64,000 nt of DNA from an uncultured virus (IMG/VR IMGVR_UViG_2061766007_000738) (IMGVR_UViG_2061766007_000738), one strand, 5' to 3'; counted from the first letter of the stretch, positions 431-57,557 are shown. Program-made: numbers and translations. The notes: generated by a model from the letters alone, not told the origin.

Positions 431-835
431 TTACAATTCTCCTCCGCCCACTTCTGAATGCGCTTGATGTCCTTGCACGAATACAGCAACACCCAGCCAC
501 NNNNNNNNNNNNNNNNNNNNNNNNNNNNNNNNNNNNNNNNNNNNNAGTCGATACGGGACGTCATTCTCCGCGTACATACTCAGAGCGCCTTTCATGTAAG
601 CACCCGGGAACACTGCGACCAAATCATGCGCCACGCTCTCCAAGTATTCACGAAAGTAATACCGAATTTCGCCGGAAAACGTAAGATCGATTACGGTATC
701 GTCAGACGCCTCGATCCGGTGTTCCCAATTCTTCAACTTAGGATGCTTATTGAAAAACTCCAGCACAGGCTCGAGCTGATCCGGGGAAGCGCAATACGCA
801 CGCAACGTCCCCCAAACACCTCCTTGATAAGACAT
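431..835 (-). CDS. Hypothetical phage protein
   Basis: ORF track; GGAGG-like site upstream; part of the packed minus-strand gene run. Confidence 0.65.
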   Translation of the reverse strand: MSYQGGVWGTLRAYCASPDQLEPVLEFFNKHPKLKNWEHRIEASDDTVIDLTFSGEIRYYFREYLESVAHDLVAVFPGAYMKGALSMYAENDVPYRXXXXXXXXXXXXXXXXWLGVAVFVQGHQAHSEVGGGEL

Positions 836-837
836 GG

Positions 838-1293
838 CTACTTCTCCTGACCAACGATTTTCACTTTACGCCCCAGCAATTTGCTGATCTCGTCCACCGT
901 GTACTCTTTCTCCGGAAGCACCTCCATGATCAAATACTTGGTCATATCTACCTGTCTGTAGTATTGATCCTTGGCGATCTTTACAATATCATCCGCGTTC
1001 GAAGCCTGATTACAACGGTTGATCGAATAAGCACGAACAGCACCGCACGTGTTGAGCGCGAACACCCCAGCATCGATACAGTACAAGCCCTGCCCGATCT
1101 CGCACGAGTTAAGGTATCGCGGAATGGTAATATTTTCCGATCCTCCGCGAACCCCATCCACGCGGATGATGTACCCCATACCGTTGCCAATGTAGAGCGC
1201 CCACTCTTTCCGATACTTGCTCCTGCAATGCTCATCCGGAAACTCCACATGAAGCAACGCGCCATTCGCCAGATTATTCCAATTTTTCAACAT
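838..1293 (-). CDS. Hypothetical phage protein with C-terminal KEYTVDEISKLLG motif
   Basis: ATG at 1293 after AGGAG; C-terminal motif shared with 19625-20206 and 32313-32702. Confidence 0.7.
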   Translation of the reverse strand: MLKNWNNLANGALLHVEFPDEHCRSKYRKEWALYIGNGMGYIIRVDGVRGGSENITIPRYLNSCEIGQGLYCIDAGVFALNTCGAVRAYSINRCNQASNADDIVKIAKDQYYRQVDMTKYLIMEVLPEKEYTVDEISKLLGRKVKIVGQEK

Positions 1294-2838: not shown

Positions 2839-3583
2839 TTTACTCCTTTTTCAACAAGTCGATCAAGTCCTGCTCGGTCTTGGCGATATCCGCACCGCAC
2901 GCACCACAATAGAACGAGTTCCACTGATCGAAGTTGCTCTCGTCAACATAGGTATCCGCGTCTTCGAGCGGGTAAACCGANNNNNNNNNNNNNNNNNNCC
3001 GTGTTGGCAGTAACATCCGCACGCCACACACGCCGCACTCGAGCTTTCTTTCCGCAGTGCGGACAAGTAACCTCTATCGGAGTATCCGCGCGAATTATAC
3101 GGGAGTCGATCCTGCCAAAAATGTCCGACAAACAACGTAATATCTCCAACAAGTTCGTAGTGTTGCACTCGCGCAACTCGTCATAGTCGACATAATTCGC
3201 CGGAACTTCCAACACAACACGCAACGGAACCATCCGCTTTTCAGCTTTCTTCGACATAATTAAACGTCTCCATAATCATCATCTGGATCATACTCGGGAT
3301 CGACCGTCCACTCCATGCACTGGCATTCACCGGGAATGAAGTCCCGATACTGACCACAGCGAATCTTGTGGACGATCTCTTCCAACTCCGCAATCAACAC
3401 TTCCTCCGATTCCACAACGATCGGAGCCTCCATATCGAATTTATACATCAGCCTCGTAGCCCTCGTCGTAATTCAACATATCTTCCACTCCGCAGAGCCG
3501 CTCTTTCAGCTCGGCAAGCTCCACATCTTTCTGAAGCAGCAACTGAATCAGCTCCGCTCGACGTAACTTTGTGTAATTATTCA

Positions 3584-4331
3584 TCATTTCCTTTTACTCC
3601 CGCACAGCGGTTTAGGCGGTTTCAGTCCAACAGTCTTAAAAATCGCTTTGTACTTATTCTCAAGATCACGACTACACTTGGGGGACACGCCACAAGAGAA
3701 TCTATTGAAAGTCTGCTCAGAAAACGCTTTAACATATTCTCTAACNNNNNNNNNNNNNNNNNNNNNNNNTGTTCCAGCCACGGATCTTCCGACGGCACCG
3801 TCTCCGGGAAAGTATACAGCCCGGGCGCAATCATATCCGCCCTACAAGCGACGTGCCCCTCACGACACTTGATAAGCACTTCATTCTTGTATTTATGCTT
3901 CTGCACGTTACCAATCCCTCCCGATATGTTAGGAACCNNNNNNNNNNTTTGCCCTCCCAAGCGCTTCAAGACACCGTAAAAAGGGTAGACAAGTCTTATC
4001 GGCAATTCTTCCGGAAACGGAAGAATCACGAAAAGGCNNNNNNNNNNTCACGGACGCGGAGCGTCCTTCCCAAGACGTAGCCAAGTCGGGTAGAACCGTG
4101 GGTTACGACTTCGGAATGANNNNNNNNNNTGCCGTCCTCCTTGTAGAGCAACGTGTAGCCGATCTCGGCATACAGCCTGCCGCAGTCTGCGCCGTACACA
4201 TCCTCGAAACGACGTATGCGATGCTGATACTCTTCAGGAACATCGTGGTTGCGCTGAGCCTCTATTTCCTTCAAAGTGATTCTGCGCATCGCTCCGTTAT
4301 TTTCTTCATCACGAAGATAGTAAGTTTTCAT
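3584..4331 (-). CDS. Hypothetical phage protein (pieces joined across gaps and probable misplaced tnpB fragments)
   Basis: MKTYYLRD...KEDG | VPNISGG... | VREYVKAF... read as one protein if the N-bounded tnpB fragments are ignored. Confidence 0.45.
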
Positions 4332-4919: not shown

Positions 4920-6047
4920 ATGTTAACTTTCAAGTACAAACTCTATTCTAATTCCAAACGTGGATATCTCGATGCACGCATCGACGCCTTCGGCGTCTTG
5001 TGGAATTATTGCATAGCGATGTACCGAAGGTACTACAAGTTGTATGGGAAGACTTTGAGTATGTATGCTTTGATGAAGCATATAACCAAAGTCAAGGGCA
5101 CTACGCATCCGTGGATGCGTGAGCTTCCTTCGCAAGCGGTGCAAGATGTGGTCTTCCGGGTGGACAAGTCTTATCGGCAATTCTTCCGGAAACGGAAGAA
5201 TCACGAAAAGGCACGTCCACCCAAGTTCCGTTCGATCAAGAAGTACCGTTCGTTTACCTTGACACAAGCCGGTTACGGCTTGTGCGGTAACAAAGTACGC
5301 ATCGGTACTCATCGCTACGGTTTTCATCTTTCCCGACCGATTGTCGGGAAGGTGAAAACCCTCACCGTGAAGAGAGACGCCGTAGGCGACTTGTGGATCG
5401 TCGTGGCTACGGACGCGGAGCGCCCTTTCCAAGACGTAGCCAAGTCGGGTAGAACCGTGGGTTACGACTTCGGAATGAAAACATTCCTCGTCTCCACCGA
5501 TCACCAAGACGTCGAGGCACCTCTCTTTTTGCAACAAGCTTCGACGAAGCTCCGAAGAGCTTCCCGAAGCGTGAGTCGCAAAAAGCGCGGATCCCACAAC
5601 CGGAAGAAAGCTTTGCAACGCAAAGCAAGGATCGAAAGGAAGATCACCAATCAACGTAGTGACTTCCAATGGAAGCTCGCACATAAGCTCCTTCGGAGCT
5701 ATGATGTGCTTTGCTTCGAAGACCTCGATCTTCAAGGAATCGCAAAGCGATTCGGCAAGAAGATCACCGAGTACTCCTTCGGGGAGTTCCTTGGTCGACT
5801 CGACTACTTGGCGCTTGTCTATGACAAGCAAGTAGTCAAGGTCGACCGGTGGTTCCCCTCTTCCAAGTTGTGTAGTAGTTGCGGATACAAGAAACAAGAT
5901 CTTCAACTCCGTGATCGCGCGTGGGTATGTCCCTCTTGTGGCGCGAGCCACAATCGGGACTACAACGCCGCGCTCAATATCTTACGGGAAGGGACATCTT
6001 CCTTGGGTAGTACTCGTAAGGCCGCCGCCGGCGGCGGAGTACGCTAG
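4920..6047 (+). CDS. tnpB: TnpB RNA-guided endonuclease
   Basis: N-terminal TFKYKLY; RuvC motifs VGYDFG, CFEDL, NRDYNAALNI; zinc finger CSSCG...CPSCG. Confidence 0.95.
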   Translation: MLTFKYKLYSNSKRGYLDARIDAFGVLWNYCIAMYRRYYKLYGKTLSMYALMKHITKVKGTTHPWMRELPSQAVQDVVFRVDKSYRQFFRKRKNHEKARPPKFRSIKKYRSFTLTQAGYGLCGNKVRIGTHRYGFHLSRPIVGKVKTLTVKRDAVGDLWIVVATDAERPFQDVAKSGRTVGYDFGMKTFLVSTDHQDVEAPLFLQQASTKLRRASRSVSRKKRGSHNRKKALQRKARIERKITNQRSDFQWKLAHKLLRSYDVLCFEDLDLQGIAKRFGKKITEYSFGEFLGRLDYLALVYDKQVVKVDRWFPSSKLCSSCGYKKQDLQLRDRAWVCPSCGASHNRDYNAALNILREGTSSLGSTRKAAAGGGVR

Positions 6048-37349: not shown

Positions 37350-37492
37350 AGTAGTAATCCTAGAAAGTGTTATTTGTGTTCTTACGCGAATATAAACACT
37401 ACCTCTATATTAAGGAAGGGGTGTGGGGGAACCATTCCGTTTACCTATTTGTTTACCTCTGGCTGAACATTTTAGTTTTTATCCAAAAACGC

Positions 37493-37521
37493 TTGACAAC
37501 CCACACTTTCAGCGCTATATT
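37493..37521 (+). promoter_or_regulatory. Sigma70-type promoter of the second tnpB (probably leaderless)
   Basis: TTGACA-17 bp-TATATT; ATG at 37529. Confidence 0.75.
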
Positions 37522-37528
37522 CTTACTC

Positions 37529-38731
37529 ATGCAGCGCCTAATTTATCGATCAGCCAAATTCCGGGTATACCCCAGTAAACAGCAGGACGCACACCTTCGT
37601 CATCTGTTGGAGGTGGGTTGCACTGTTCACAATTTGTGCCTGTACCGTCTGCGGAAACAGTTGGCGCGTGATAAATGTGTTCTGCCGCTAGAAAATTCTA
37701 AACGCTGGTCGAAAAAGAAACACTTCCAACAATACTACCAGCAATTGCCGACGTGGTTTCAAACGGGTGTTATCCGTGCTGCCGACCGTCAGTTTTTCGC
37801 CACACTGCGTGATGGTGTGCCGCACTTTCGTCCGAAGGTTCCCACACGCTACCACTCCATAGACATCAGCGCCGGTTTTCCGATTATCGGTGGCAAGCGC
37901 CTATACATCGGGGCTTTTGGTGGTCTGCGCATTAAACCGCACCGACCGCTCCCCAAAGACTGTCAGATCTATCAACAAACACTTTCTTTGGATGGCTCCG
38001 GACGCTGGTTCTACTTAGTTCGCTACTCTACCGTAATAGACATCCCTGAAAATACCGGGACTGCGGCTGTTGGCGTCGATGTCGGTTGCAGAACGTACGT
38101 CACTCTAAGTACCGGGGAAGCATTTGAGCACCCGCACTTTGGCAACAGCGTTCGCGAACGTATGCACGCACTGCATCGAGTACTCAAACACTCCTCCCCG
38201 GATAGCGCACGCTATCGTGTTGCCGATATAGAACTTCAGCGTATAGTGACCCGCCTGAAGGATCGGCAAAAGAACTTCATGCACCAACTCAGCCGACAGC
38301 TGGTGGACCGCTTCGACGTCATATGTGTTGAAGACTTGGACGTCAAGCGCATGTTGCAAAAAACTCGAACCAATTCTAAGCTATTCGACACAATCTTGGA
38401 CAGTCAATGGTCCACGTTCATCTCGATGCTGACTTACAAGGCTGAGAGTGCTGGTAAGAAAGTTATCCGAGTTCCGGCGTACCACACATCAAATCTCTGT
38501 TCGGGTTGTGGGGCAATGGTTGAGAAGACCCTGTCCGATCGTACCCACGTTTGTCCTCATTGCGGGTTGATACTGGACAGGGATCATAATGCAGCGTTAA
38601 ATATTTTGAAGCGAGGAACTCGCCAGGATACGGCCGTATCCGAAGTTGTACCCACAACAGTTCACAGAAGTGTAATTTCCTCAGCTCCCGATTCCACCAC
38701 GACTACAGAAGTAACTTACCTCTCCAAATAG
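37529..38731 (+). CDS. tnpB: Divergent TnpB-family nuclease without a recognisable IS left end
   Basis: KFRVYPSKQQ; RuvC VGVDVG, CVEDL, DRDHNAALNI; zinc finger CSGCG...CPHCG. Confidence 0.9.
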   Translation: MQRLIYRSAKFRVYPSKQQDAHLRHLLEVGCTVHNLCLYRLRKQLARDKCVLPLENSKRWSKKKHFQQYYQQLPTWFQTGVIRAADRQFFATLRDGVPHFRPKVPTRYHSIDISAGFPIIGGKRLYIGAFGGLRIKPHRPLPKDCQIYQQTLSLDGSGRWFYLVRYSTVIDIPENTGTAAVGVDVGCRTYVTLSTGEAFEHPHFGNSVRERMHALHRVLKHSSPDSARYRVADIELQRIVTRLKDRQKNFMHQLSRQLVDRFDVICVEDLDVKRMLQKTRTNSKLFDTILDSQWSTFISMLTYKAESAGKKVIRVPAYHTSNLCSGCGAMVEKTLSDRTHVCPHCGLILDRDHNAALNILKRGTRQDTAVSEVVPTTVHRSVISSAPDSTTTTEVTYLSK

Positions 38732-45647: not shown

Positions 45648-45812
45648 TTTTCCATTCCTCTGTTAGGTTAATTGTTGTTGATGCGTGCAACCAAGTAGCG
45701 CCCACAAAGAACGCCAATTTGATTGCCAATGATTGCAGCACCCAATGCGAGTGCCACTTCGGTAAAGAGTTGCGTCATAAGGCAACCCTCCTATGTTAAG
45801 CACGCCTAAACA

Positions 45813-45853
45813 AAAATCCCGTAGTGGCTGCGTGCATTAACCACTACGGGATG
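45813..45853 (-). terminator. Terminator-like hairpin with potential loop pseudoknot (copy 1)
   Basis: ATCCCGTAGTGG-TTAATGCACGCAG-CCACTACGGGAT-TTTT. Confidence 0.65.
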
Positions 45854-45863
45854 TCTTTTTAAT

Positions 45864-45933
45864 TGGTGGAGCTGCCCGGTTTGACTCGGGGTGTAGCGAT
45901 CAAACGATCACTATCGAAAACTATTTCGACCCC
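45864..45933 (-). ncRNA. Miniature tmRNA tRNA-like-domain-like RNA (70 nt)
   Basis: 5' GGGGUCGAAAUAGUUUUCGA, 8 bp hairpin, degenerate T arm, 3' CAGCUCCACCA with G3-U70. Confidence 0.55.
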
Positions 45934-46358
45934 GCGGCTTCGTCCTTCAGAATACTTTCGACGTAGCGTACGACGCGCTCGTACTCGCGGCCTGATGTTT
46001 CGCTGTCCCGGTATGCCTTGGCAATTAGCTCTTCGCCCGTGCCGTAGAAACAGCCGACGCGCCACATGTTATTGGAACGTGTCCAGGTGAAATACCGTCC
46101 GCTGCTCCACCAATTTTTGAAAACGATGTAATCACGTATTCCGGCGACCCGCGCGTCGCCACAGACCTGCGCATCACCGTAAACAGCTGCATTACCGTAG
46201 ACCCACGCGTCGTCGGAGAGGTTGCTTTCCTGTTCGACCCAGCCGCCGCGATCGNNNNNNNNNNNNNNNNNNNNNNNNNNNNNNNNNNNNNNNATGATCC
46301 GATGCAGGATGTGCCCACCGACGCACAGCGTATCGTCCGTAAATTCAAATGTTTTCAT
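45921..46358 (-). CDS. Phage protein with VYGNA-type hexapeptide repeats
   Basis: GGWVEQESNLSDDAWVYGNAAVYGDAQVCGDARV; VGCFYGT. Confidence 0.8.
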   Translation of the reverse strand: MKTFEFTDDTLCVGGHILHRIXXXXXXXXXXXXXXDRGGWVEQESNLSDDAWVYGNAAVYGDAQVCGDARVAGIRDYIVFKNWWSSGRYFTWTRSNNMWRVGCFYGTGEELIAKAYRDSETSGREYERVVRYVESILKDEAAGSK

Positions 46359-46388
46359 TGGTTTTTCCTTTGGTTATTTTGGTTATTT

Positions 46389-46457
46389 TGGTGGATCTGC
46401 GGGGAGTCGAATCCCGCCGCAGAAAACTGCACTTCGGCTTTAATTTCCGCGGAAACC
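46389..46457 (-). ncRNA. Second miniature tmRNA/tRNA-like RNA (5' end in gap)
   Basis: GGUUUC, 9 bp stem CCGCGGAAA/UUUCUGCGG, CGGGAUUCGACUCCCCG T arm, CAGAUCCACCA. Confidence 0.55.
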
Positions 46458-47820: not shown

Positions 47821-48362
47821 CTATTTTTAGGCACTTTTAGGGGTGTTTTGGGCATATACGCCAAAGTGCAGAATTTGCCCTTTCAAACATCAGTAAGAGG
47901 TCATTTTTGAGCTATTATAGGCGTTTTTGGAGCTTAAGAGCTCATTTTTGAGCTATTACACGCATAACTCGCGATAAAATGCCATTTTCGAGGGCTAGCT
48001 CGAGTTTTAATCGGAGTTATGGCGATTTTGGGACTAAAAATGTCAAGTTTGTGGAAGACATTCCAAGAACTTGGCAAAATTGCCGAGTTTGAGGAGTTTG
48101 CACCCCAAATTTAAGAAAAATCATGTCGAATTTCTTAAAAATCGAGCTCAGAGTCAGAAAAGTGTCGGAAATAGTCGGTTTCTGTCGGGAAAAGTGTCAA
48201 AATATGCGAAAATCCCTATTAGAAGGGGATAAAACCCACTTTTAACACGGTTTTAACCCACATTAGCCCAGCGGGCGCTGCTTTGGTGAAATTTGAGGAT
48301 AAGCCCTTGAAAAACCGCTAAAATGGACTATATTGAGTGCGAATACTGCCGAAAGGACGCAC

Positions 48363-51300
48363 ATGAACGCAGAAAAGCTGATAAAAGAGACCGTAGAACG
48401 CATAAAAAGCGGTCAACTTACCGATTTTTCCCCATTGATAGCGCTTTTCCAGTATGAGCGCAAACCAATGACCTTAGACGGTCATTTTATGTTTTTGCCG
48501 TTGTTTTCGCTGGAAAGACCTAAATATATCTCCCTACAATCAGGTCGTCAGGTCTCTAAATCATTCACCTCAGCAGAAGTGAGTTTACTGACGACTGGAA
48601 TGATAGAGAGTTTCAACTCTATCTATATTGCGCCCAGATACGAGCAGATCAAGCGTTTTAATAGTCAGGTTCTGCACCCATTGATGAAGTCGTCTCCGGT
48701 AACGCCTTTGCTTATTGATAAGGAAGGATCTTATTCGATTGAGATGAAGTCTTTCCTGAACGGGAATTCATTAACATTGGCACATTCTTATCTAAATCCC
48801 GATTCTGTTCGTGGTTTGACTAACTGTGGCTCCCTGCAGGTTGATGAGTCCGTCCGCGGGGACACAAAAATTGCAATCTTTCACTTGACAGATTGCCAAG
48901 ATGGTGTATATTATATCTCGGATAGGCCGGAGATCGTTCCGATATCCGAGGTAAAACAAGGCGATATAGTGATGTCGTTCACCTCGGAAGGCTGTATATA
49001 CAGCCCGGTGGTGCGAGATGCGTCCTACCATGGGCGTAGAGCCGTATTTAAGGTTACTACGCAAAGTGGACGCAGTCTGTGTTGTACCGCCGACCACATG
49101 CTGCAGACTAATAAAGGCGGTATGCGATTATCAGAGTTAATCGAATATGCTTGTAACAGCAGAAATGGTGCGCGAGCAGGCGCAGAAGGATGGCATCAAC
49201 GAGATGGTGCTGAGTGCGATTGTGGGAACGATTCTGGGGGACGCGAATGTGCGGCGACCCCGTCCTTGGGGAAACGCGAACTCCGGTCTTCGGTGGAACC
49301 ACGGCCTGAAGCAGAAAGACTATTTGGAGTACAAAGCGAGCATATTATCCGGGCTCGTTACCCGTCCAGTATCCGTGAAGGAGAATCCCGGCTACGGGAA
49401 GTATTGGGCTGTGCTGACAACCAGGTCTTTGCGGACATTTACATTGCTTGCGTGGATGATCTATCCGGAAGAACGTGCTCCGAAGACTATAACCGCGGAG
49501 TTGTTGAAGCTAATAACCCACCCAATCGGGCTGGCGTGGTGGTTCGGGGACGACGGTTCCAGAAGCAAAGGATTAAACGGCGGATCCATTGCGACAAACG
49601 GCTTCACCGAGGAAGAAGTAGACTTGCTGAAGTCTTGGCTTGCGGCCGTCNNNNNNNNNNNNNNNNNNNNNNNNNNNNNNNNNNNNNNNNNNNNNNCTCC
49701 GGTAATATACTTGGATCGACTTGCATTTATAAAGTTATCAGAACTGGCACTGGAGTTTCTACCGGAGTCGATGCAGTACAAATTGGTACTTATCAAGAAA
49801 ACGTGCGCACATTGCGGAGCGGAGTNNNNNNNNNNNNNNNNNNNNNNNNNNNNNNNNNNNNNNNNNNNNNNNNNNNNNNNNNNNNNNNNNNNNNNNNNNN
49901 NNNNNNNNNNNNNCACGAGAAACACATTGCTTACGGAGCGGCGTATCGGGAGGCACATCGAGAAGAAATTCGCCAGAAGTCCCGCGACGCGTATGCGGCG
50001 ATGACACCGGAACAGCGCGAGCACAAAGCGCAGTATTGGAAAGATTATGTGGAGACCCATCGGGATCAGCGCAATGCAAAGCGTCGAGAACTGCGTGCGC
50101 GCAAGAAGGGCGACCCGGAGTACGAACGGAAGCTGAAGGAAGAGCGCCAACGCTACTATCAGCGAAAAAAGGCGGATCCAGTACGTCACGCGCACTTGTT
50201 GGAGCTGTCACGTGCAGCACGACAACGGCCCTCCCGGAAACAGCACGACTTGGAGTATCAACGCAAATACCGGGCGGAGCATCCGGAGGTATACACAGCG
50301 CAGAGAGCGCGTGCCGAGGCACGTCGAAAAGAGCGTATGCAAAACGATCCAGAATATCGGGAAAAACGCTTAGCACAAGAGCGAGAAATACAAGCGCGAC
50401 GGCGTGCGAAGAAACAGTTAAAAAAGACAACTTCGTCTACGACCGAATAATCACTATAGAATACGTCGGCGAGGAGGATGTCTATGACATCGAAGTAGTT
50501 GGTACACACAACTACATCCTCGCCAACGGAATATGCTCCTATAATTGCCAAGATATTAACCCCGATTTTCTCCCGGTTTTCGAATCCACGACTGACGCAT
50601 CTAAGTATGGATGTATACAGACGACGGGTACTCCTAAGACATCAGATACACTTCTTACATTGCAATTCAATAAATCGTCGCAGTGTCATTGGGCGATTAA
50701 ATGTCCGCATTGTGCTAAATGGAATATTGCCGCTATTGACGAACAACTTATAAAGATGATCGGCAAAGCAGGGCTCTCCTGCGCCTTCTGCGGAAAGATT
50801 CTTGACCCACGTACAGGTGGGTGGTTGCCGAAGTTCCCTGAGCGCCAGCGGTTCCACGCGGGCTATCACGTCCCGCAGATCATTCTTCCTATGCACTGCG
50901 AGAATCCGACCAAGTGGGCAGTACTAAGATCCCGACAGGCTGAGTGGACTCAAAGTAAGTTCTTCAATGAAGTGCTCGGGGTGGAGGCGGATCAAAGTGT
51001 TAAATTATTGACTGTTAATGACTTAGAGAAAGCTCAGGGTCCTTGGGAAAATTCCTTGGACAACGCCGCCAAGATGGCGAAGGAATTCACTACAGTGTTC
51101 GTCGGCGTGGACTGGTCGGGAGGCGGTGGTGGTTTCAGCCGTACCGCCATTTCGGTGATAGGGCATAGGAGCGGTCATCGGGATACTTGTGTGCTGTTCC
51201 TCGAAACTTTGCCGCATGGTCTGACTCCCGAAGAAGAAGCAGACCGCGTAGCCGCGGTATATGCACGTGTAGGCGCACAGATGCTCGCACACGACTATAC

Positions 51301-51771
51301 CGGTGCGGGGTTCGTACGCGAATCCGTTCTCTTGGGCAGACATCCTTATCTGCGGGACCACATCTATCCCTTCGCCTACGTATTCCGTACCGGCAAGCAG
51401 CTTGTAACCTACCAAGAATCCGGCAGCCGCAAAAGCGCTAACGTAGNNNNNNNNNNNTCAACTCCATTCGCTCCGGGTTGTTGCGCATTCCTAAATTCAA
51501 CCCGGCGAATCCCAAGGAGCCCATCTTGGAGATGCTGAACATCGTGGAGCGTCCGCAGGAATTCTCCAAAGCCTCCATCAAGGACGTGTATATTCTACAA
51601 CGAGCCGCGGGCAGATATGATGACGCCGCGCATGCGGTCAACATCGCCTATATCGCACAATGCGACTTGACGGAGGATTGGCCTAACTTCGCGATGGATC
51701 CCAAGTATGAGATGTCGGAAGCCGCTTTGAATGAACTTACGGGAGGTAGCGGAGAGGTAAGCGTGATCTAA
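48363..51771 (+). CDS. terL: Terminase large subunit, intein-containing
   Basis: Walker A GRQVSKS; Walker B LQVDE|CQD split by the intein; GTPKT; CPHC/CAFC; nuclease VGVDW and YDDAAHA. Confidence 0.9.
48849..50545 (+). mobile_element. Intein in terminase Walker B
   Basis: Block A SVRGDTKI, block B TADH, blocks F/G VYDIEVVGTHNYILANGICSYN followed by Cys+1. Confidence 0.9.
49147..50450 (+). CDS. LAGLIDADG homing endonuclease with Cys motif and long basic helical tail, in the +1 frame inside the intein
   Basis: AIVGTILGDA and LAWWFGDDGS motifs; own ATG; joined to the R/K/E-rich tail across the 49826-49913 gap by inference. Confidence 0.8.
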
Positions 51772-56567: not shown

Positions 56568-57557
56568 ATGGCGAAGAAACTCCTGCTAATTAATGGTGGC
56601 GGGCAGTACGGGATCGTACCTGCCTATTTCCTCTCGTTGATCGAAGATTTCACCGGAGAAGATTTTCGAGAGCATATCGATTGTCTTTCCGGGTCGTCCA
56701 TCGGTGGTATTCTTTCCGCGATGTACGCCACCGGTACCCACCCTGGAAACATAAAACAAGTCTTCCCCTATGCTTGTAAGAAAATCTTCCAAAAGCGCTT
56801 TTTAGCCAAGGTAAACCCGCTCGCCGCCCCCAAGTACGACGATACCGAGCTACAGTCGTTTATTGACGGCTACATTAAACAGCGTACTATCGGAGATATC
56901 CATCGTATTTATCCGAAGCTGGACGTGTTCTTCGCTGGTTTGGATATTACTGACGATTCCTTTAAAGTGTGGGATAATATCACCGGCAAAGACGACAATG
57001 AACGTCTTAGCGAGATCTGTCGTATTACTTGCGCGGCGCCCACCTATTTTGATGGGGTGAATCGAAACGGTCACGCGATGGTCGATTGTGGGCTTATCGA
57101 GAACACGATGCTGATGACCACCACTATCGGGTATAAGACCAAGCGCGACGTGCCCTTTGAAGAAATGGATGTGCTGTTGCTGGGGACGGGGTTCCTGGTC
57201 GACGAAGAACCACTCGACTTCAAGAAGTACAGTGGTCTCAATCAACTCGGCATTCTCTTCAACCTCATCATCCCTTATGTCACGCAGAGTAATGAGCTTG
57301 CGTCCATTTTCTGGGCACGCGGGCTCGGGTTGCGTAATTTCTACTACTTCAATCCGGTGACTATACACGGCGAATTGGATGAGACGTCTTTGCTTCCGGA
57401 AGTGGAAAAGGACTGCCTGCAGTGGGATCAACGATTCATTCAAACATGGAAGAACTTCCTCTCTGACGAGAAGAAAGATTCTGTTAAGGATGTTCGCGAG
57501 TTGATTGTACTTCCCCCCAAGCAGGGCGAAGCCTACTACCGGAAGATAGAAGCATGA
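56568..57557 (+). CDS. Patatin-like phospholipase
   Basis: NGGGQYG, GSSIG nucleophile, CAAPTYF, DCG in place of DGG. Confidence 0.88.
   Translation: MAKKLLLINGGGQYGIVPAYFLSLIEDFTGEDFREHIDCLSGSSIGGILSAMYATGTHPGNIKQVFPYACKKIFQKRFLAKVNPLAAPKYDDTELQSFIDGYIKQRTIGDIHRIYPKLDVFFAGLDITDDSFKVWDNITGKDDNERLSEICRITCAAPTYFDGVNRNGHAMVDCGLIENTMLMTTTIGYKTKRDVPFEEMDVLLLGTGFLVDEEPLDFKKYSGLNQLGILFNLIIPYVTQSNELASIFWARGLGLRNFYYFNPVTIHGELDETSLLPEVEKDCLQWDQRFIQTWKNFLSDEKKDSVKDVRELIVLPPKQGEAYYRKIEA

Follow-up and report, generated by a model that had tools for sequence, protein, structure and literature searches.

Two tag-less tmRNA-like elements bracket a variable gene slot in an uncultured phage of the bovine gut

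Why would a phage carry two relatives of transfer-messenger RNA (tmRNA) that consist of little more than the tRNA-like domain (TLD), and how far do they deserve that name? The question is raised by positions 45,864 to 46,457 of a 64,000-nucleotide (nt) stretch of DNA from an uncultured virus, IMG/VR IMGVR_UViG_2061766007_000738; we refer to the whole stretch as the window. On its minus strand a first-pass annotation had placed two miniature, TLD-only tmRNAs, and we found both elements at the positions given for them (Table 1). What the locus displays is their anatomy, the match of element 2 to the tmRNA family, their conservation in a relative and their position on either side of a gene slot. 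On this basis we propose, with a probability of roughly 0.6, that they are two phage genes for tag-less TLD-only mimics of tmRNA, which would compete for SmpB and stalled ribosomes with the tmRNA of the host.

Element 2 is, on its sequence alone, a TLD-only mini-tmRNA typical of the kind first described from the phage DS6A. Its D-loop analogue is GGUUUC (GGTTTC in DNA; the Rfam consensus of this part is uGGaUUCGAC), and single-stranded UUGGUUUUC leads into an 8-base-pair (bp) P2 stem, CGCGGAAA/TTTTCTGCG, that carries a 17-nt apical stub; a D stem and an anticodon arm are lacking. The T arm, CGGGA/UUCGACU/CCCCG, has A53·C61 and a 7-nt loop that fits UUCRANN, and the 3' end, which reads CAGATCCACCA, is made up of the acceptor strand CAGAUCC and ACCA. 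Both GGTTTC and a T arm with UUCGACU had been pointed out in the first-pass annotation, which gave the stem as 9 bp where we count 8.

The window contains 81 runs of N, one of which covers the 5' end of element 2, its 5' acceptor strand included. About 11 nt are expected there from the 81-nt copy in L084, a 3.6-kb metagenome contig that was found by the pattern of element 1. The L084 acceptor is a perfect 7-bp stem, GGGUCCG/CGGAUCC, with G3·U70, A73 and an encoded CCA; position 67 differs from the window strand CAGAUCC, and L084 has the matching C6. Its T arm has the loop UUCGACU, the closing pair G53-C61 and an ACCA end. Furthermore, element 2 shares its final 23 nt exactly with the 3' end of the tmRNA genes in two metagenome-assembled genomes (MAGs; L081 and L082) of low-GC Bacilli from animal guts, in which the 5' strand is GGGUCUG. 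A complementary 5' strand had been predicted for the gap upstream of element 2, and it is present in L084 and in both bacterial genes.

The Rfam tmRNA model RF00023 (gathering cut-off, 47 bits) recognises L084 element 2 at 50.7 bits (E 2.7e-18) over model positions 1-374, with the mRNA/pseudoknot part deleted. Window element 2, searched within a 761-base stretch, scores 19.9 bits (E 5.9e-6); the alignment runs from the D-loop analogue to the CCA and skips 300 of the 374 positions, all of them internal, with 11 nt in their place. A 24-mer of element 2 had 0 matches in metagenome contigs. Two other candidates, L080 and L083, were set aside as chance matches, both falling inside coding sequence.

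A described case of such an RNA is that of the Mycobacterium phage DS6A, whose tmRNA sequence holds little beyond the TLD (Hudson, Lau & Williams 2014, PMC4131195); it is the only phage case named in the available text of PMC4131195 and PMC11915505. We found that the DS6A mini-tmRNA (JN698994, 28478-28560) matches RF00023 at 43.2 bits over model positions 1-374, with about 300 positions deleted. It resembles element 2 in being phage-encoded and about 80 nt long, in its G3·U70 acceptor, D-loop analogue, canonical T arm and short P2 with a stub, and in having no tag frame. DS6A differs in its single copy, which ends in CUA and not CCA, and in its actinobacterial host, whereas the phage studied here is an unrelated one from the cattle gut with two diverged copies around a variable gene. 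The bacterial tmRNAs of L081 and L082 (367 nt in the ARAGORN output) share with our elements the same TLD, a 5' end of the form GGGUCUG..GGUUUCGA, the alanine identity pair and the CCA, but they carry a tag frame and pseudoknots, whereas the elements close P2 after 8 bp, have no mRNA-like domain and measure 69-81 nt in total.

Element 1 is best described as a reduced, diverged and weaker relative of the TLD that is somewhat damaged in this phage. Its acceptor, GGGGUCG/CAGCUCC (GGGGTCG at the start of the DNA), contains G3·U70, U5·G68 and a C6xA67 mismatch and is followed by the single strand AAAUAGUUUUCGA. The D-loop analogue is UUUUCGA; AAGAGUUUUCGA precedes an 8-bp hairpin, TAGTGATC/GATCGCTA, which has a bare tetraloop and is joined to the T stem by AC. 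The T arm, CCCGA/GUCAAA/CCGGG, has a 5-bp stem and a 6-nt loop with G at position 54 and runs into ACCA; the discriminator A and the CCA are encoded, and the 3' end reads CAGCTCCACCA. The parts first reported for this element, namely G3-U70, the discriminator A, the CCA, one mismatch and the 8-bp hairpin, are all there.

The window copy of element 1 folds with a minimum free energy (MFE) of -24.2 kcal/mol (z -3.2). The 69-nt L084 copy has a perfect GGGGCUG/CAGCUCC-ACCA stem and folds (MFE -30.8 kcal/mol, z -3.8) into a 7-bp acceptor and, after 12 single-stranded nt, an 8-bp hairpin followed by a T stem of 5 bp, a topology shared by most of the other mini-tmRNAs folded. The same perfect 5' acceptor strand is present in a 151-nt contig of sequencing run X5 (depth 2; reverse complement read by hand), which is the second relative at our disposal. 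The T loop is GUCGAA or GUCAAA among these copies, with purines only at position 57 (A in the window, G in X5 and L084); the 7-nt UUCRANN is the tmRNA form.

We class element 1 as TLD-like because of its architecture: it has no D stem or anticodon loop, it has UUUUCGA and an AC before the T stem, and its hairpin is of the P2 type. Phage tRNA-Ala genes with the same acceptor resemble it in GGGGCUG/CAGCUCC, the T arm and the CCA, but they have D and anticodon arms, whereas the elements carry a P2-type hairpin in the place of the anticodon arm. A tRNA-Ala identity was rejected for both elements: there is no cloverleaf, each middle hairpin has 8 bp and is capped either by a 4-nt loop or by the 17-nt stub, and neither ARAGORN nor Rfam reports a tRNA (no match to the Rfam tRNA model at E ≤ 10 on short stretches with either element, from the window or from L084). 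A role as decoy for tRNA nucleases, which had also been suggested, was dropped, as nothing speaks in its favour and neither element has an anticodon loop for an anticodon nuclease. A two-piece or permuted tmRNA was rejected as well, because element 1 has a 5' strand that is not complementary to the CCA end of element 2.

We also observed that both window elements have A at T-stem position 53 (A53·C61; 45886 and 46414, minus strand), where both L084 copies have G53-C61 (2390 and 3260 region); the X5 contig agrees with the window at position 53 of element 1. That two diverged paralogues in a single genome changed alike at this position may reflect chance or co-selection.

A number of results weigh against our interpretation of the pair. 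The searches with Infernal and ARAGORN that had been recommended gave a divided answer: ARAGORN calls nothing in the window and 0 genes in L084, Rfam finds nothing in the window at its gathering thresholds or in a whole-window scan at E ≤ 1, and the RF00023 match of element 2 shows only with the short stretch as input. The acceptor pairing of element 2 in the window is borrowed from the relative, the 5' strand there being N. Element 1 fails RF00023 in both its window and L084 copies, its best Rfam match being the 3' piece of tmRNA_permuted (9.0 bits, E 3, in the window; 19.6 bits in L084). Its T loop is 6 nt long with G54, and the window copy has C6xA67, U5·G68 and A53·C61 together with a different minimum-energy fold. 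The designation as TLD-only mini-tmRNA holds well for element 2, through its L084 copy, and not in full for element 1. The comparative base is thin, with two relatives only, and no compensatory change was seen inside the P2 stem of either element among the relatives compared.

The covariance model of phage mini-tmRNAs that the first-pass annotation had called for cuts both ways. Our model, R1, was made from 12 mini-tmRNAs (10 from IMG/VR, L084 element 2 and DS6A). Run over the window and L084 with filters off, it gave 68.3 bits (a training sequence), 40.6 bits (L084 element 1), 33.6 bits (window element 2) and 24.4 bits (window element 1, E 0.003), with the next place at 11.5 bits, and in the 64-kb window it finds exactly two places, elements 1 and 2. 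To be set beside the preceding points, however, are the controls: the 15 tRNA-Ala genes that share the acceptor all scored 37.6-49.4 bits and other tRNAs 21-25 bits, and R1 places the L084 copy of element 1 on a level with tRNA-Ala and the window copy on a level with unrelated tRNAs. Since the tRNA-Ala controls score as high, R1 shows for element 1 an alanine-type acceptor and T arm, and not a TLD. Its acceptor columns were, moreover, set by a pattern from element 1's own relative, which makes this result partly circular.

Pattern and model searches indicate that the TLD-only kind recurs in IMG/VR. A pattern of acceptor and T loop returned at least 121 stretches; among the matches listed, 111 were called tRNA-Ala by ARAGORN and 10 were uncalled. 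Nine of these 10 match RF00023 at 43-75 bits, five of them above the cut-off of 47 bits and four below it, and several lie inside tRNA arrays. A second pattern returned 45 stretches, among which the four not called as tRNAs are further mini-tmRNAs; three of the four were scored with R1, at 57.7-62.1 bits. Exact-pattern scans of IMG/VR with the 3' end of either element gave 0 matches, and blastn of both L084 elements against phage records gave short tRNA-type T-arm matches or nothing. Default annotation probably misses such RNAs, because ARAGORN and the Rfam gathering score find nothing in the window; ARAGORN was the sole means of counting tmRNAs in a survey covering 18,146 phage genomes, according to its accessible text (PMC9004378). 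New in the present case are the cattle-gut lineage, the two diverged copies in one phage, the 69-70-nt form and the link to a gene-swapping hot spot.

The P2 tip stub, AAAGCCGAAGUGCA or AAGACCGCACGCGG, recurs in many independent mini-tmRNAs while the stem below it differs; it was seen in L084 (3265-3285), L117, L212, L232, L140 and L085 (DS6A). Element 2 and L117 have near-identical stub letters on different stems, and element 1 is without the stub. Beside the mini-tmRNA and tRNAs of L140 there are two sub-threshold matches to YrlA, a Y RNA-like family (803-924, minus strand; 36-39 bits, cut-off 69).

Of everything that can be aligned with L084, which carries both elements, these two are the best conserved. 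Identity is 94.4% for element 1 together with the terminator (126 nt) and 95.8% for element 2 (71 nt), against 90.3%, 82.3% and 77.1% for the neighbouring genes; the genes that lie between the two elements are unrelated to each other. Homology breaks off 3-6 nt past the CCA of element 2 and picks up again where element 1 begins at its 5' end. Because homology breaks at both elements while the gene between them differs, we conclude from these alignments that the pair brackets a variable gene slot. The slot holds a beta-solenoid gene in the window, a 243-aa radical-SAM gene in L084 and nothing in the X5 contig, where the two elements lie about 6 nt apart with the joint at 46388; as a single contig of depth 2 placed at 80% likeness, X5 is a lead and not proof. 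Upstream of element 2, L084 has a GC-rich stretch of 332 nt (3317-3648, minus strand) that corresponds to an N-masked part of the window and contains no convincing open reading frame (ORF); this stretch has no Rfam match, and its fold is no better than that of shuffles (z -0.99).

Table 1. Features of the locus, in minus-strand order (coordinates are those of the window)
Feature	Position	Strand	Description
Element 2	46389..46457	-	Visible 69 nt of TLD-only mini-tmRNA
Slot left edge	46359..46388	-	Spacer from the CCA of element 2 to the cargo start, including the ribosome-binding stretch
Cargo gene	45921..46358	-	145-aa beta-solenoid protein (YdcK-repeat-like, phrog_7964), predicted
Element 1	45864..45933	-	70-nt reduced TLD-like RNA
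Intrinsic terminator	45808..45852	-	Directly after element 1: 14-bp stem, 9-nt loop, U tract

The same comparison bears on whether the elements are inert remnants, either pieces of a host ssrA gene captured at an attachment (att) site or by imprecise excision, or decaying tRNA-Ala genes. The 23-nt identity of the end of element 2 to the two Bacilli tmRNA genes would fit such an origin, window element 1 looks damaged (the acceptor mismatch and A53·C61), and an integrase may lie outside the window. An att core, however, is a contiguous 3' piece only, whereas both elements have 5' and 3' halves joined by a short closed hairpin, and neither has an anticodon arm or a tRNA call. No integrase, no other recombinase of the integrase kind and no SmpB was found in the 79 window ORFs scanned (PHROGs; Pfam on 78 of 79), where only two TnpB genes came up, and the phage has its own polymerase, primase, helicases and recombinase. 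The identity to a bacterial ssrA 3' end that was raised at first pass as a possible sign of att remnants is real over 23 nt, yet att remnants are unlikely given the 5' halves and the lack of an integrase in these ORFs. With both halves present, no integrase found and the elements so well conserved, we rate inert remnants lowest among the rival explanations, as very improbable.

The terminator behind element 1 folds at -27.3 kcal/mol (z -4.8), a value reached by 0 of 200 shuffles, and is kept in L084; a consensus terminator scan misses it, as loops were limited to 8 nt and this one has 9. A promoter consensus scan gave counts within shuffle expectation. With an element on each side of a protein gene and a terminator directly downstream, the RNAs might act as processing punctuation only, that is, as signals for RNase P and 3' trimming that split the early transcript and protect message ends, as tRNA punctuation does in organelles, with no role in trans-translation. 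The several mini-tmRNAs located within tRNA arrays, which undergo such processing themselves, agree with this, as does an element 1 that scores no higher than a generic alanine-type acceptor with a T arm. A pure RNase P substrate, however, needs no G3·U70, A73, encoded CCA or D-loop analogue, and both elements keep all of these; element 2 fits the tmRNA model, which is more than a minihelix would do; and in the X5 contig there is no gene to punctuate. We consider punctuation alone an unlikely explanation.

We favour instead the competition with host tmRNA proposed at the outset. Both elements would be transcribed with the leftward genes, in a transcript that ends at the terminator behind element 1. 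Excision would follow the route of tRNAs, with RNase P cutting at G1 and the 3' side trimmed to the encoded CCA, and the alanyl-tRNA synthetase of the host would recognise G3·U70 and A73 and charge the RNAs. SmpB would be bound, and EF-Tu as well once the RNA is charged. Having no resume codon and no tag frame, the mini-tmRNAs could not complete trans-translation, and their competition would lower tagging and degradation in infection. This sequence of expression, processing, charging, SmpB binding and effect on the host is suggested by tmRNA biology and by the statement, in the available text of PMC4131195 and PMC11915505, that a TLD-like molecule is a strong inhibitor of tmRNA irrespective of its chargeability, perhaps because it titrates SmpB; PMC4131195 credits the inhibition result to Mao et al. 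2009. If it is true that the mini-tmRNAs block the SmpB-tmRNA system, they would represent a compact, RNA-only viral switch-off of bacterial protein quality control.

The same molecules could also be imagined to rescue ribosomes without tagging. Alanyl-charged mini-tmRNAs would, together with SmpB, take over the nascent chain untagged, phage proteins would escape proteolysis and the ribosomes would be freed otherwise. The alanine identity set and the CCA have been kept, as this would require, and conserved mitochondrial and plastid tmRNAs that lack a coding sequence (CDS) and occur alongside SmpB probably remain useful in dealing with incomplete mRNAs, according to the available part of PMC11915505. 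Against such rescue, there is no resume or stop codon and hence no known route of ribosome release, and the inhibition independent of chargeability, as reported in the accessible portion of PMC4131195, favours titration; we regard tag-less rescue as doubtful. The CDS-less organelle tmRNAs, which the same part of PMC11915505 describes from jakobid and oomycete mitochondria and, as plastid forms of about 65 bp, from Mallomonadaceae, are by that description like the viral mini-tmRNAs in having hardly more than the TLD and no tag frame. They differ in being cellular, in co-occurring with imported SmpB and in being presumed an aid to rescue, whereas the viral mini-tmRNAs are presumed to interfere.

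The gene slot raises a further idea, which we consider a long shot, namely that the pair is a docking frame at which phage lineages swap accessory genes, with RNA maturation controlling the cargo. The last four codons of the cargo gene, TAG included, lie inside element 1, with the stop at its positions 11-13; in L084 this overlap is absent. If the pair were such a frame, the cut at G1 of element 1 would deprive the cargo of its stop and of the three sense codons before it, and the cargo message would become a non-stop substrate of the very trans-translation that the mini-tmRNAs inhibit, a self-contained circuit. In Carsonella smpB-ssrA, as presented in the accessible text of PMC4131195, a protein gene likewise runs into the 5' end of a tmRNA, as the 145-aa gene runs into element 1, so that RNA maturation would sever the message and turn it into a non-stop substrate. 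There, however, the gene is smpB and the RNA a full tmRNA, whereas here an unrelated cargo gene meets a tag-less mimic.

The predicted cargo protein matches phrog_7964 at 1.3e-40 and, weakly, the Pfam family B_solenoid_ydck. Relatives of its gene are frequent in IMG/VR, where 95 were found and 79 loci were kept; no tRNA or tmRNA was found beside the cargo relatives at these 79 loci. The word TCCACCA occurs 104 times at these loci, mostly as the antisense of a conserved motif inside the gene, and R1 gave one weak match there (21.6 bits), which is tRNA-like and without G3·U70. About 650 nt behind a beta-solenoid relative in L042 we noted a tRNA-like sequence (3433-3510, plus strand) with a T arm, CCA and U3-A70, which ARAGORN does not call.

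By its gene content and by database comparison, the window belongs to an uncultured phage without a close relative among deposited phages. Its ORFs encode a DNA polymerase, a primase, helicases, a UvsX-like recombinase and an SbcC-like protein (Pfam, PHROGs). Megablast of 24 kb of the window against phage records gave no match; in blastn of the locus against deposited phages the cargo gene alone matches, in Streptococcus phages; and the terminase reaches at most 27% identity by tblastn among deposited phages. Searches of IMG/VR with the terminase or with a neighbouring 118-aa ORF returned no relatives, and the 118-aa ORF had 2 relatives among 5.8 billion proteins searched. The whole stretch is present only in bovine gut metagenome runs. 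No RNA dataset is among the 17 runs listed for it, and in runs X3-X6 parts of the stretch are without cover.

Several other features of the window were observed. Two small hydrophobic ORFs, at 45668-45778 (minus strand) and from 47254 into an N run (minus strand), have similar starts (MTQLFTEVALALGAAIIG... and MTAQIIEVLIILSAALVGG...), each sits behind a strong terminator, and they resemble paralogous membrane peptides; the ORF at 45668-45778 is missing from L084. The two TnpB genes (IS605 OrfB / Cas12f-like TNB) lie at 4920-6047 and 37367-38731, both on the plus strand. An intein interrupts the large terminase gene (48333-51538, plus strand), in which Hint and intein-splicing matches are followed by matches to the GpA ATPase and to the phrog_675 terminase, and a 285-aa ORF (49147-50004) lies in another frame inside this gene. 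A patatin-like phospholipase gene (56568-57557, plus strand; Pfam 6.2e-22) is found among the rightward genes.

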